A stretch of 64,000 nucleotides of DNA from an uncultured Verrucomicrobiae bacterium (lineage in GTDB: Bacteria > Verrucomicrobiota > Verrucomicrobiia > Limisphaerales > JAFGQR01), in assembly GCA_963788655.1 (NCBI GenBank), contig CAWBHS010000017.1:14353-78352 (forward strand), read 5' to 3'. The translations under genes were made by a program, and so were the position numbers. The notes under the pieces were generated by a model, which did no database searches, was not told where the DNA came from, and saw only the letters and a list, made by a program, of their open reading frames with translations. Positions 22,527-26,495 of the stretch are shown here, one piece after another; position 1 is the stretch's first letter; each line of letters begins with the position of its first letter.

Positions 22527-22686
22527 CGCCCCCACGTTTACCAGTCATGCCGGAAACAGGCGAGTGTGAATCTGAAAATGCCGGCCGCCGCTCCTCTCCG
22601 TCGCGGTGGATGGGATGGATAGGGTGCCGGTTCGGACGCTGCTAACCTGAATAATTGTCACCCCAGGCTTAGCACGCCGACAGCCT

Positions 22687-22741
22687 GTAGCCGCCGACGT
22701 GAGGAGGCGACGCGCTGGAAGTGGCCCCGGTTCCGCCTCCT
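22687..22741. repeat. GTAG-type REP with truncated second arm, at the distal end of the cassette array
   Basis: gtagccgccgacgtgaggaggcg ... cgcctcct. Confidence 0.75.
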
Positions 22742-22819
22742 GAGTTCGCTCCTTTTTTGGTGCCGAAAGTGTAGCTTATGCCGAGGACTAATCAGTAGGA
22801 TCAGTGTGGTCGTATTCAT
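22742..22819 (-). pseudogene. 5' remnant of a putative eighth cassette gene
   Basis: ATG about 20 nt after the intron-remnant 3' end; hydrophobic MNTTTLILLI start; cut by REP. Confidence 0.4.
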
Positions 22820-22839
22820 AGGCGTTTGGCTGCCGCTGC

Positions 22840-22867
22840 ACCGGGTAGGGGTGAGCGGTCGCCCGCT
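22840..22867 (-). mobile_element. 3'-terminal (domain VI) remnant of a second group II intron
   Basis: agcgggcgaccgctcacccctacccggt versus ggcgggtgaccgcctacgcctacccggt at the end of the intron at 23095. Confidence 0.7.
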
Positions 22868-23077
22868 TTGCTCCTGCAAATCCCACCACTTCCAATGGCC
22901 GTCTGCGTTAAGCTCCCAAACAAGCTTCCGCTCGCGGCAATGCCACGTGCCAGCCATCGACGCCATCGAATTCGCCGAGGATGGAGAAATGGCGAGGGCG
23001 GCTGGCTCCTCTGTCGTGTGAGGCGTGGCACAACCGCACAGAAGCACTGCAAGGAAATACGATGCGATGCATTTCAT
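22868..23077 (-). pseudogene. cassette 7 gene: lipoprotein-like, 3' truncated
   Basis: MKCIASYFLAVLLCGC lipobox-like start 17 nt after intron end; runs into intron remnant. Confidence 0.6.
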
Positions 23078-23094
23078 GGCGCGTGCAAAGTGGG

Positions 23095-23911
23095 ACCGGG
23101 TAGGCGTAGGCGGTCACCCGCCCACGCCCCCCTAAGAACCGGACTTGAAAGTTTCCCTTCATCACGGCTCAAGCCTCTCCAAGGCCACCCCGGATGCGGG
23201 GGACCCGCGTAACCAGGAGGCCGGTGACACCCAAAGGCGTCATGGACCTTCCCAATCCCACTTGGCAATACCGGTCGGCGGCCATATCGCGCCCGGCTCC
23301 TTTGGGCCGCAGCACCGAGAGGCACCAAGCGACGGGCGTCGCTCGTCCTATGCTTCTCTCGCTTGAAGGGGTTCCGCTGATTTTCTTGCCAGGAGACACC
23401 AGATCGACGTGGGCATATCCGGTCCATTACCGACCGGCCTTGGCTTGTTCGATCCTCTTCATGCTGCCTCCCCTGGGCCTGCCTTGCGGTCGGCTTGCCT
23501 GGATACTCTCCAGGCGGGAACTGGCAGCTTTTCCATGTTCCGCATTCTCCACAGGATGGGTTAGGTCCACTCTGTACACCGGCGGTGCGCCATTCGCGTC
23601 GGGCTACGTTAGACAGCCCGAACTTGACCGCTGGCCTTCTTTTGGCCGGAGCCTTAAAACAGCCTCGTATGGCTCGTTCCTCTGACGATGCTTGCGAGTG
23701 TTCACGTGGGTTGACCCTACCATCCAATTCTAGCGCCGCACCCGGATTGAGGCTCCCAGGCTGGCTACATTGTCGGGAAGGCTTCACACCCTGGACAGTA
23801 GCCTTACGGCCGCCCGCCCAACGCATGCTTCCCTGGAATACCTGCCGCGAAAGGCAGGACTGAGTCAGGTTGCCCATGCTCAGCAGTGATGAATGCGACT
23901 TCATGTCACAA
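23095..23911 (-). mobile_element. ORF-less (internally deleted) group II intron, IIB-like, inserted in attC R' core
   Basis: 5' TTGTGACATG; domain V GAGCCGTGATGAAGGGAAACTTTCAAGTCCGGTTC; domain VI ending CCTACCCGGT; EBS1 hairpin tcgggctg-TCTAACG-tagcccga; no RT motifs. Confidence 0.9.
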
Positions 23912-24032
23912 CCAACGCCGAGGTGAGCGAGGGCTGCCGGCAGCGCCCGCTCGACTGTGAAGAAAACGGTGGAAGAACCCGGTGCTCCCGCTGCCAGACG
24001 GGGCAGCCCTTCGCTCTACCGACTGGTTGGGC
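23912..24032 (-). mobile_element. attC site 6 (R' interrupted by intron)
   Basis: R'' GCCCAAC matches cassette start GTTGGGC; long imperfect palindrome; R' GTTGG|CC. Confidence 0.85.
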
Positions 24033-24042
24033 ATTCTCGGTT

Positions 24043-24634
24043 TCATTTTGGTGCTGCGCTGGCTTCCCTCGCGAGGCGTTTGCGAATCGCCGCCAAGCTC
24101 TTCTCGTTCTCCTCGTCGGGCCACAACTCGTAAGCGCGAAGGAACTGCCTCTCCGCATTTGTAACGTCGCCCAATCCCAGATAGATGCTCCCGAGGTAGG
24201 CGTGTCCGTAATAGTAGTTGGGCTGCTTGGCGACCAACTGTTGCGCGAGGGACAGCGCAGTCTGGTAATCCAGACGGTCCATCGCGGCGCTTACCTCGCG
24301 CCAGGGACGCGCCGGCGACTGTTGCGGCGTTGTGCGCGACTCATCGTAGCGGTCTCGGTCGTGGCGAAGTATGGCCATGTAAACAACTGCCCCAGTCAAA
24401 AAAACTGCGAGGAACCATGTCTGAAGCTGTCCGATCTTCCTGAACTTCTGTAGCTCAGTCAATATGCCCGCATTGATGTTGTCGCTCCTGGCAGGTGGTG
24501 GGGACCGGAAATGCGTCCTGCTCGGGCTATCGATAGGGGGCACCCTCAGCAGCAGGCTCGAAACACGTTCCACATTCCGAGCAATGCAAGGACTCCTCTG
24601 GGTTCTCACGTCCGCAGTAGTCACACCGTTTCAT
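24043..24634 (-). CDS. cassette 6 gene: zinc-ribbon + TM + TPR protein (frameshift at G-run near 24538)
   Basis: MKRCDYCGREN...HCSECGT N-terminus; GHAYLGSIYLGLGDVTNAERQFLRAYEL TPR. Confidence 0.7.
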
Positions 24635-24654: not shown

Positions 24655-24750
24655 GCCCAACGCCGAGATCACCCATGAGCGGCATCCCAATACCGCTCAA
24701 ATTCTAAACCGACGTGCTTGCCGCTCATTGGGTGAATCGATTGGTTCGGA
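24655..24750 (-). mobile_element. attC site 5
   Basis: R'' TCCGAAC ... R' GTTGGGC; stem cacccaatgagcggca/tgccgctcatgggtg. Confidence 0.88.
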
Positions 24751-25084: not shown

Positions 25085-25211
25085 TCCGAACAACCAAGCT
25101 CACCGATCCGCGCCGGGCGGGACGGTCGAGCGTGAAAGAAACGATGGAAAAACCAACTGAGCAACGAGCGGAGGATCGGGGCGCGGATTCGTGTGCAGCG
25201 CTTGGTTCGGC
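25085..25211 (-). mobile_element. attC site 4
   Basis: R'' GCCGAAC ... R' GTTCGGA; stem atccgcgcc/ggcgcggat. Confidence 0.88.
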
Positions 25212-25482
25212 GTTTGATGAGATAGCTGTGGACGCTGCTCTAAGACGGATAAGGGCAACCCAAAACGTCGAAGACCAGACCGGTCGCTACAAATACCCAG
25301 ACTGCGCAGATGTGCTGGCCGCAGAAGTCGAACGCCTGCGATCTGTCTCCGAAAAGCAGCAGTGGCGGATAACCAGCCTACAACAAGACATGCGCACGAT
25401 AATGGACGTTACTCGATGGGAACACCAAGCGCACCAGATCGCCAAGCGCGCTCTGACGCCGAACAACCAAGCTGAGCGATGA
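25132..25482 (+). CDS. cassette 4 gene (antisense to array): small coiled-coil hypothetical protein, phage-like
   Basis: starts in attC4 (GTG 25132 or ATG 25144), stops in attC3; LAAEVERLR coiled coil. Confidence 0.65.
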   Translation: MKETMEKPTEQRAEDRGADSCAALGSAFDEIAVDAALRRIRATQNVEDQTGRYKYPDCADVLAAEVERLRSVSEKQQWRITSLQQDMRTIMDVTRWEHQAHQIAKRALTPNNQAER

Positions 25483-25555
25483 GTGCCCCATCCCAAACTC
25501 CCGAACTGCCAATCAGCGTGGCGGGGCACTCATTCGCTCCAGCGCCTGGTTCGGC
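25458..25555 (-). mobile_element. attC site 3
   Basis: R'' GCCGAAC ... R' GTTCGGC; stem atgagtgcccc/ggggcactcat. Confidence 0.88.
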
Positions 25556-26141
25556 GTTCAGGTGTGTGATGGCCGACCCGCCGTGGCAACTGACGATGCG
25601 CGGCAAACGCAAGCGCGCCAAAGAGCCAAACCTGCCGGAATCGCTACCGTATACGACGATGACTCTGGACGAAATCTGCGCTCTGCCAGTCGGTGAACTC
25701 TGTGCTGATGACTGCCACTTGTGGCTGTGGACTACCAACCAACACCTGAGAGACGGCTTTCGGGTAATGGAGGCGTGGGGCTTCCGGTATCTCGCGCCCG
25801 TCCACTGGATAAAACCGAGCGGCGTCGGCAACTGGTTCGTCCACCGCACGCAGACAATACTGATGGGATACAAGACCCGATGCCGCTTCGAGCGCGCCCG
25901 CTACCGGCCAAACATCGTGACGACTGGCGACCCGAAGCGGCACAGCGAGAAGCCGGAGGAAACATACGCGCTCATCGAATCTGTGAGCAGCGAGCCACGG
26001 CTGGAAATGTTCGCACGCCGGAAGCGTCCCGGCTGGCAGTCCTGGGGCAACGAAGTCACCAGCGACGTGATACTGACGCCGAACGTGGAGGTCACCGACC
26101 GGCAGAAAACCAGAAAGGAAACGGATGCCAAACAAACATGA
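25479..26141 (+). CDS. cassette 3 gene (antisense): MT-A70-family adenine methyltransferase
   Basis: MADPPW, HLWLWTTN, AWGF.Y..WIKP, HSEKPE, LEMFAR.RPGW..WGNE. Confidence 0.92.
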   Translation: MSAPSQTPELPISVAGHSFAPAPGSAFRCVMADPPWQLTMRGKRKRAKEPNLPESLPYTTMTLDEICALPVGELCADDCHLWLWTTNQHLRDGFRVMEAWGFRYLAPVHWIKPSGVGNWFVHRTQTILMGYKTRCRFERARYRPNIVTTGDPKRHSEKPEETYALIESVSSEPRLEMFARRKRPGWQSWGNEVTSDVILTPNVEVTDRQKTRKETDAKQT

Positions 26142-26186
26142 AACTGACACGCAGGCAGCCGGTTCGCGTGAACCGATTGGTTCGGT
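26078..26186 (-). mobile_element. attC site 2
   Basis: R'' ACCGAAC matches cassette start GTTCGGT; R' GTTCGGC. Confidence 0.85.
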
Positions 26187-26493
26187 GATCCCGGCCCCGT
26201 GGGGTGGCATGGAATGGAAACATGCCTTGATGGCTCGAAACCTAATGTCATCCCGAAAATGGATATGCCGGACCGAGTGGGGGCGTGAATTTGTTATTGC
26301 GTTCAAAGAACCGGGTCCAATTGCGCTACTCTGCATTGAGGATCGGCTGTGGCCAGTTAAGCCGTATTCACCGAACGTCCCGGATCACCGACCGCCGCCG
26401 GAAACGGGCGCTGGCAGCGAATCCAGCGTCCAAAGTATGCGGTGCGTCCTAACCGAAGTGCGGGGCGGCGGTTCGAGTGAATCCGATTGTTAG
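26125..26493 (+). CDS. cassette 2 gene (antisense): small hypothetical protein
   Basis: AAAGGAA RBS and ATG inside attC2; reads through attC1 to TAG in its R'' core. Confidence 0.55.
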   Translation: MPNKHETDTQAAGSREPIGSVIPAPWGGMEWKHALMARNLMSSRKWICRTEWGREFVIAFKEPGPIALLCIEDRLWPVKPYSPNVPDHRPPPETGAGSESSVQSMRCVLTEVRGGGSSESDC

Positions 26494-26495
26494 CC
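26370..26495 (-). mobile_element. attC site 1
   Basis: R'' GGCTAAC matches first core GTTAGCC; R' GTTCGGT; stem accgccgcc/ggcggcggt. Confidence 0.88.

Follow-up and report, generated by a model that had tools for sequence, protein, structure and literature searches.

A group II intron without an open reading frame (ORF) for a reverse transcriptase (RT) was identified within an integron recombination site (attC) in a 64,000-nt stretch of DNA (hereafter the window; part of contig CAWBHS010000017.1, here C17, of assembly GCA_963788655.1) from an uncultured Verrucomicrobiae bacterium of the Limisphaerales. The anatomy of this intron (23911..23095, minus strand; 817 nt; 5'-UUGUGAC...CCCGGU-3'), its assignment to the IIB1/chloroplast-like 1 (CL1) type, its copies and the sites that they occupy were established with Rfam models, similarity of the protein encoded by sister copies, genome copies, junctions and empty attC sites. 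It is very probably a non-autonomous derivative of IIB1/CL1 introns, in which the RT gene has been replaced and which homes to the top strand of attC chiefly via exon-binding site 1 (EBS1). The family would insert between bases 5 and 6 of the attC core R' (GTTRR|RY), just past the 3' arm of the hairpin that attC forms, and would choose its site mainly through a six-base-pair interaction of its EBS1 loop (CUAACG) with the exon sequence CGTTAG, or CGTTGG with one G-U pair.

Intron Structure and Boundaries

Rfam group II domains were confined to the minus strand of the window. Part of domain I was recognized at 23859-23734 (RF02012, group-II-D1D4-7; 62 bits, gathering threshold 34, E 2.5e-10) and domains V/VI at 23172-23095 (RF00029; 49.6 bits, gathering threshold 40), the latter over the full model (1-77), with the catalytic AGC triad (GAGCCG...) and a bulged A located 7 bases from the intron 3' end. 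On the minus strand, the 5' exon ends in ...CCTCGGCGTTGG, the intron runs from UUGUGACAUG... to ...CCUACCCGGU, and the 3' exon begins with CCCACTTTGCAC...; the sequence flanking the intron on the 3' side is CCCACTTTGCACGCGCCATG.

The boundaries were fixed by comparison with the 91 empty attC sites of this genome, in which CGTTxG is followed by GC (41 sites), CC (19 sites) or other bases, and GTTAGTT occurs in none of the 91. The 5' exon therefore ends after base 5 of R' (GTTRR|RY), and the first intron base is U. In the window, the split core is GTTGG|CC: its final two bases (CC; 23093..23094, minus strand) start the 3' exon, as in empty sites of the forms GTTxxGC and GTTxxCC, with the intron-binding site 3 (IBS3) position at +1. 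An earlier note on this DNA, made from the sequence alone, had described an 817-nt intron without an RT gene that splits the R' core of a sixth attC, and both its coordinates and its boundaries hold against the Rfam matches, the junctions and the empty sites.

The 5' end UUGUGAC aligns base for base with GUGCGAC of the relatives. The first and penultimate bases of group II introns are known to interact, and these two positions changed together: G1 was accompanied by a penultimate A in 20 relatives and U1 by a penultimate G in six, with no mixed combination. The own intron family combines U1 with a penultimate G (23911 and 23096 in the window), and all six U1 relatives are attC-associated.

An open frame of 276 aa (23074-23904, minus strand) covers the entire intron, continues for another 21 nt and overlaps the beginning of the following ORF. 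This frame matched no Pfam family and was rejected as a gene, being taken as a chance frame in DNA of 61% G+C; the absence of an RT ORF claimed earlier was thus borne out.

Insertion Site and Orientation

The 5' exon is an attC site (23912..24032, minus strand; 120.1 bits with covariance model R1) comprising R'' (GCCCAAC), an L'' arm with two bulged bases, the L' arm and the first five bases of R' (GTTGG). Model R1 was built from an alignment of 11 attC sequences, namely the 5' flanks of 10 intron copies and one empty site of the window, on which the R''/R' and L''/L' hairpin was imposed; 10 of the 11 training sequences are thus occupied sites. In this alignment, 91.6% of the cells were paired, 15 of 22 pairs showed compensatory changes, and none of 500 shuffles scored as high, with slid controls at 25-48%. 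DNA folding of the flanks gave a long imperfect hairpin whose 5' arm carries two single-base bulges and whose 3' arm is continuous.

R1 detected six attC sites in the window, all on the minus strand and spaced by about 300-740 bp, whereas the plus strand of the window gave no credible match (a single one, E 0.18). The five other sites are unoccupied (24657-24750, 25087-25211, 25460-25555, 26080-26186 and 26372-26495; 57.6-77.6 bits). Since R1 places the split attC at 23912-24032, the intron occupies the last of the six sites detected in the window, and the numbering in the earlier note was correct. At least 105 attC sites on about 40 contigs were matched in the genome, a lower bound because 150 of 5756 first-look candidates were scored. 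Two other means of finding attC were discarded: a regular-expression scan for 3' arms gave 495 matches in the genome versus 373 in the reversed genome, and a hand-made hairpin scanner was too strict (two of six sites found), so R1 was used instead.

The intron sits in the sense direction in the attC top strand, as indicated by three observations. On the intron-bearing strand, the bulged bases fall in the 5' arm (R''-L''); an ORF starts 10-20 nt after the intron in the window copy and in six others; and on contigs C59 and C49 the integrase gene intI is divergent and located upstream of the arrays, in which the intron occupies the fourth and the seventh detected attC, respectively. With insertion in the top strand, just past the hairpin 3' arm, the intron takes on the direction of the cassette genes. 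Integron integrase (TIGR02249) was matched above cut-off three times in the genome (C59, C49 and C69). No TIGR02249 match was found on C17, where the attC array has no neighboring intI, and accordingly no Pc promoter can be named for the window array. Of the earlier proposal that the intron lies in sense orientation within a Pc transcript, the orientation was confirmed, and no Pc promoter could be assigned to the window array.

Target Recognition by EBS1

CUAACG (23612..23607) lies in the 9-nt loop of a hairpin (23600..23620, minus strand) in which all six stem pairs were supported by compensatory changes among 18 relatives. Together with a second hairpin of the EBS2 type, 95.1% of the alignment cells were paired over these relatives; none of 500 shuffles scored as high, and slid controls reached 22-49%. 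The objection that CUAACG might fall outside such a loop does not apply, and its pairing with exon CGTTGG (one G-U pair), proposed from the window sequence, gained covariation support.

Across relatives with unrelated targets, the EBS1 loop co-varies with exon positions -6..-1. The loop and exon sequences were UUAUCG and CGAUAA in L022, CCACAU and AUGUGG in L087 and L098, CGAACG and CGUUCG in L060, CAUAAC and GUUAUG in L080, GCGAAC and GUUCGC in L089, and UAACGGU and ACCGUUA in L084, while L076, L077, L023 and the own family share CUAACG and CGUURG. The match was imperfect in L021, L040 and L045. It was absent in L081, which directly follows another intron copy.

Occupancy was examined over 103 attC sites of the genome, consisting of 102 full-length R1 matches and the site on C80, which R1 missed and which was added by hand; three partial R1 matches were left out. 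Sites with IBS1 CGTTAG were occupied in 10 of 30 cases and those with CGTTGG in 2 of 24, compared with 0 of 25 for CGTTCG and 0 of 24 for other sequences (Fisher p 5.4e-5 for CGTTAG versus the rest, 2.8e-4 for CGTTRG versus the rest). All 12 visible 5' junctions, in the copies that keep their 5' end, follow an attC CGTTAG or CGTTGG. Occupancy of attC in this genome thus depends on the match to EBS1, and the suggestion that the R' core is read by base pairing was upheld by both the covariation and the occupancy statistics.

Alternatively, the protein or recognition of the hairpin fold of attC might dominate the choice of site, and EBS1 pairing would then provide a secondary check. A role of the hairpin has been speculated upon (Sonbol and Siam, 2021; PMC7923331), insertion in every attC-homing relative immediately follows the hairpin 3' arm, and L021, L040 and L045 occupy sites that match EBS1 imperfectly. 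The co-variation of EBS1 with the R' variant across the clade argues against it, as do the CGTTCG sites, which share the same hairpin architecture and are never occupied. We therefore regard selection mainly by hairpin or protein as rather unlikely and selection chiefly through EBS1 as the better account.

Candidate EBS2 and EBS3

The EBS2-type hairpin (23649..23675, minus strand; stem 98.1% paired, four of six pairs compensatory) has a loop of 17 nt with CGAGG (23667..23663), about 50 nt upstream of EBS1. The conserved L' arm, at -12..-8, is a possible pairing partner of this loop, and in the window copy all five pairs with exon CCTCG can form. In L022 and L034, the homologous loop and the exon can form 8 and 10 bp, respectively. 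Among the 12 occupied sites, CGAGG forms five, four or three of five pairs in four sites each (mean 4.0).

For EBS3, each column of domain I was scored for a Watson-Crick match to exon +1, and the best column (15 of 23) was intron position 338 (23574, minus strand; C in the window copy). The position is polymorphic (C or G) in the family, may pair with exon +1, and fits it in seven of 11 copies, including one G-U pair. In empty R' cores, position 6 is most often G or C, and the alleles at position 338 are C and G. These could be two alleles tuned to different targets, with four of the 11 copies mismatched.

Copies in the Genome and the ORF-Less Form

The genome (8.96 Mb, 115 contigs, 86% complete, 5.6% contamination) yielded 19 matches to the intron, corresponding to 14 copies and fragments. 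Seven are full ORF-less copies of 98-100% identity (C17, that is the window copy, C80, C93, C49, two on C59, and C9). Three copies of about 2209 nt (C99, at a contig end, C44 and C46) are 88-91% identical over positions 1-568 and 726-817, and one copy on C50 is 74% identical. The fragments comprise a 5'-truncated piece on C56 (from position 415), the first 265 nt on C27 together with a 28-nt piece 380 nt further on, and a piece at the end of C9 with one extra G between CGTTAG and UUGUGAC (105878-105881). The 28-nt piece (C27:23856-23883; intron positions 3-30) stands alone after CGTTCGTG and is followed by attC-arm-like sequence; it may be the footprint of a deletion.

C99 and C44 each have an uninterrupted frame of 505 codons for the intron-encoded protein (IEP); the frame of C46 ends prematurely (401 codons), and that of C50 is disrupted. 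Both further copies in the genome and donors with a full-length IEP, which the earlier note had proposed to look for, were thus found, with an attC R' at every visible 5' junction. In the ORF-less form, the IEP gene is replaced by a domain IV filler of 157 nt (intron 569-725; 23187..23343, minus strand) without IEP similarity. Alignment with the C44 copy places the former IEP start codon at 23347..23349 (minus strand; AGG here, ATG in C44), and the ribosome-binding stretch ahead of it has been retained. The ORF-less introns would thereby have kept the ribozyme and the start region of domain IV, with the RT gene replaced. A frame ending in GGLGEA* exists, as noted earlier, but its reading as a possible IEP tail was not sustained: when intron positions 530-740, which include the filler, were compared with 82 IEP-bearing sequences, the best tblastx E value was 0.14 and blastn gave no match at E 0.1. 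Apart from the C56 fragment, only the seven ORF-less copies contain the filler. Because every ORF-less copy has the same filler, a single ORF-less origin is suggested, and one ancestral ORF loss followed by proliferation would be the simplest reading.

Class of the Intron

The IEP of a sister copy (502 aa) contains the domains RVT_N, RVT_1 and GIIM, and no HNH domain was found in the Pfam search. It scored 364 bits against the NCBIfam model of group II RT/maturases (TIGR04416; cut-off 300). Its best solved relative was 6ME0_C, the enzyme of T.el4h (E 1.1e-167, 562 bits; query residues 6-483, chain residues 5-480 of 562), compared with E 1.7e-38 for LtrA and E 3.9e-36 and 7.1e-34 for IIC enzymes, none of these exceeding 136 bits. 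The protein lacks the C-terminal part in which the T.el4h lineage carries an endonuclease (En) domain. According to the excerpted text of PMC8643678, T.el4h (Th.e.I3) is an IIB1 intron with a CL1 RT. From this kinship the intron is placed in IIB1/CL1, an assignment by protein similarity alone. The earlier placement in class IIB rather than IIC agrees with the E values (1e-167 to T.el4h, about 1e-34 to IIC).

An ordinary IIC-attC intron of the S.ma.I2 type, reading the attC hairpin and a short IBS1, would also insert directly after the hairpin and would also have an En-less IEP, as the sister copies do. The IEP, however, has an E value of 1e-167 to the IIB1/CL1 enzyme against about 1e-34 to 1e-36 to IIC enzymes, there is a hairpin of the EBS2 type, insertion is at GTTRR|RY, and the intron lies in the sense direction in the top strand, whereas IIC-attC introns lie antisense in the bottom strand as described in excerpts of PMC7923331. 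Membership in IIC-attC was excluded by IEP similarity, the EBS2-type hairpin and the strand, and we give it next to no credence.

Relatives and an attC-Homing Clade

Relatives were sought in one genome per species, which gave 584 among 601 candidate stretches; the best 80 (79 loci) were kept and share 48-62% amino-acid identity. The closest of these, L023 (62%), comes from a Limisphaerales metagenome-assembled genome (MAG) and lies in an array of three R1 matches, with a 5' exon ending in ...GGAGCGTTAG, intron ends TTGTGACATG... and ...CCCGGT, and CCCACT as the 3' exon. An R1 attC abuts the intron 5' end in L023, L089, L040, L021, L076 and L048, with R1 trained on the own genome only, and AAC...GTT hairpins were found by folding in L034, L060, L077 and L084. 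The attC status of L045, L049 and L080 was ambiguous.

In a tree of 46 IEP rows (45 loci with a located 5' end and the C44 protein; L040, with 14 stops, was excluded), the 13 introns labelled as inserted in attC R' fell into one clade of 15 rows (SH-aLRT 92), the exceptions being L081 and L022. The attC-R' label required three changes on the tree against a shuffled mean of 11.6, and none of 500 shuffles was as low; the labels were assigned partly by eye and the tree was calculated by a quick method. An attC-homing clade was thus demonstrated from IEP sequences, and its attC-homing members come from several phyla.

Two other groups of insertions were recorded among the relatives. A distinct CL1 subclade from Vibrionales and related bacteria (Vibrio, Photobacterium and Pseudoalteromonas; L051, L053, L054, L067, L073, L074, L079, L082 and L097) inserts downstream of a common motif of the type YCTAAMTCnnnnnTGYCC, in which CTAAC, some 13 nt ahead of the insertion point, resembles R''. 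At L081:888, from a Desulfatiglandales MAG, the copy abuts the 3' end of a preceding copy and another follows its own 3' end, in a tandem or nested arrangement.

At the DNA level, the intron was not found in the one other genome of the family, and a sample of 400 genomes from the phylum yielded a single weak match (75% over 124 nt).

Comparison with Known Introns

The nearest published case is UHB.I2, an IIB1/CL1 intron with an En-less IEP from a cassette array in a soda-lake metagenome (Sonbol and Siam, 2021; PMC7923331, in excerpt). It resembles the present intron in class, in the lack of the endonuclease domain, in its location just after attC in cassette orientation and in its non-consensus ends (5'-UUGCG...GU-3' in the excerpted description, UUGUG...GU here). 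UHB.I2 was represented by one full-length copy at the edge of a contig, for which the authors observed neither conserved flanking exons nor an EBS3 bulge (same excerpts). The present intron, in contrast, is ORF-less and one of 14 copies and fragments, the comparison being by published description; here the site is resolved to GTTRR|RY and targeting is statistically tied to EBS1. In a search of full-text literature on group II introns, attC and integrons, UHB.I2 was the sole matching case found, and the excerpted text of a 2022 integron review names IIC-attC introns only (PMC8876359). The intron is hence a further member of a lineage in print since 2021 and is documented more fully here. The independent non-IIC lineage proposed in the earlier note stands as IIB1/CL1, but it was not undescribed.

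ORF-less TeI3 and ORF-bearing TeI4 of Thermosynechococcus elongatus, for which mobilization in trans by "driver" IEPs was demonstrated by assay (Mohr et al., 2010; PMC2882425, in excerpt), offer a second comparison. They are CL1/IIB1 kin, a single ancestral ORF loss in domain IV was followed by proliferation, as is suggested here, and ORF-less copies outnumber ORF-bearing ones, as in the present genome. According to the same excerpts, however, the T. elongatus IEPs carry an En domain, whereas the present IEP stops some 80 residues short of them; vestiges of the ORF are visible at both of its ends there, whereas none is detectable here beyond the start region; and the T. elongatus targets are diverse and not attC.

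IIC-attC introns such as S.ma.I2 share with the present intron the specialization on attC, the position beside the hairpin and the En-less IEP (excerpts of PMC7923331 and PMC8876359, and in part general knowledge), and differ from it in that it is of IIB1/CL1 class, lies in the top strand in sense, enters GTTRR|RY of R' and has an EBS2-type loop.

EcI5 of Escherichia coli is an IIB1/CL1 intron that recognizes IBS1 at -1..-6 and IBS2 at -8..-13. The proposed IBS2 at -12..-8, with -7 unpaired, fits this geometry. In EcI5, IBS2a lies at -14 (PMC8643678, in excerpt). EBS2 and EBS2a are experimentally required in that intron, whereas the pairings here are candidates. The base two positions before CGAGG varies (U, G or A) among the copies without a matching base at exon -13/-14, and EBS2a was accordingly discarded.

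Splicing, Mobility and Spread

Open IEP frames persist in sister copies, and the En-less IEPs of these copies would splice and mobilize the ORF-less RNA in trans, on the model of Thermosynechococcus TeI3. Reverse transcription would be primed at replication forks, and the intron would be spliced from read-through transcripts of the cassettes. As the insertion lies 3' of the G|TT crossover, a copy would join the downstream cassette and its attC once excised and ride along with it. The proposed trans action of IEPs, fork priming and transport with the downstream cassette all draw on what is known of related introns.

Public sequencing runs were searched for words shared with the locus. There were 23 such runs, each with at most 0.14 of the sampled words, and four of them (X1, X3, X5 and X6) were examined. 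Contigs from X3, X5 and X6, which are metatranscriptomes of sediment and wetland, carried parts of the intron at 90-99% likeness (window 23257-23919). The X3 contig included part of the filler specific to the ORF-less form, and the X5 contig joined the intron 5' end to a different attC-like arm. Because these contigs carry the intron, with part of that filler in X3, the ORF-less lineage exists outside the assembly; being from RNA libraries in which DNA carry-over is possible, they are uninformative on transcription. No contig covering the flanks of the window locus was found in the four examined runs.

Several observations weigh against the proposal of an active, EBS1-guided derivative. In the examined runs X1, X3, X5 and X6, neither ligated exons (GGCGTTGG-CCCACT) nor an empty allele was seen, and no joints were present. 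The intron ends UUGUG...GU deviate from the consensus GUGYG...AY. The ORF-less copies are only about 90% identical to the IEP-bearing ones. R1 was trained mostly on occupied sites, a bias expected to oppose the enrichment, which would be understated if anything because this training inflates the count of empty CGTTAG sites. Two occupied pairs (C17/C49 and C44/C46) share a near-identical upstream attC, so that the number of independent insertions may be about 10 rather than 12. Pairing with CGAGG was 4.0 of 5 at occupied sites versus 3.76 of 5 at 42 empty CGTTRG sites (p 0.32), and CGAGG ranked 15th of 813 windows on occupied sites and 6th on all attC. With similar pairing at occupied and empty sites, CGAGG represents a general match to the attC consensus, which leaves guidance to the site unsupported, and EBS2 was rejected as a site discriminator on the p value and the rank (15th of 813). 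The earlier suggestion that CGAGG is EBS2 thus kept its place in the structure and its five pairs in the window, and lost the discrimination between occupied and empty sites. The candidate EBS3 mismatches the exon in four of 11 family copies, the window copy (C:C) among them.

Some of these observations would also suit the view that the ORF-less copies are dead relics, spread passively by duplication and shuffling of cassettes and by homologous recombination. The two pairs with near-identical upstream attC, a position 3' of the G|TT crossover from which a copy would ride with the downstream cassette, and the absence of splicing or an empty allele in the examined runs are all in its favor. Passive spread would, however, not predict that occupancy tracks the EBS1 match, and the seven copies of 98-100% identity lie in attC sites that are bordered on either side by otherwise unrelated sequence. 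Rfam indicates intact catalytic domains, and the genome holds open IEP frames. We consider passive spread of relics improbable and retain the non-autonomous, EBS1-guided derivative.

A wider reading joins these results with the clade: a multi-phylum group of IIB1/CL1 introns, specialized on the sense strand of attC and carried by integrons, in which the ORF-less copies are hyperparasites. We put it forward tentatively, as a conceivable but doubtful extension. The insertion point would lie 4 nt to the 3' side of the crossover made by the integrase (G|TTRR|RY), integron recombination would ferry the intron between genomes, and splicing of read-through transcripts would keep it harmless. The ORF-less hyperparasites would be driven by the few IEP-bearing copies, and the EBS3 alleles (338 C/G) would be adaptations to two common forms of R', ..G|GC and ..G|CC.

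Neighboring Cassette Genes

The cassette ORF upstream of the intron (24043..24624, minus strand; 193 aa), which owns the split attC, weakly matched Pfam TPR_16 (E 6e-7, below the curated cut-off). The ORF downstream (22658..23077, minus strand; 139 aa), whose ATG lies 17 nt past the intron, has a lipoprotein-like N-terminus by eye and matched no Pfam family.

Implications for Integrons

To our knowledge, textbooks tie integrons to class IIC introns alone, inserted antisense in the bottom strand. The present locus, its 13 sister copies and fragments and the multi-phylum clade represent a second route into attC, in which introns of another class enter the gene-sense strand, driven by base pairing. 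Its value lies in the depth of evidence, and no new category is introduced. The genome offers a natural experiment, with about a hundred attC variants over which occupancy tracks the EBS1 match, and also holds a pair of driver and passenger introns. With sense insertion, cassette transcripts would need splicing; otherwise downstream cassettes would lie 0.8-2.2 kb further from the promoter, which would bear on the expression and the shuffling of cassette arrays.

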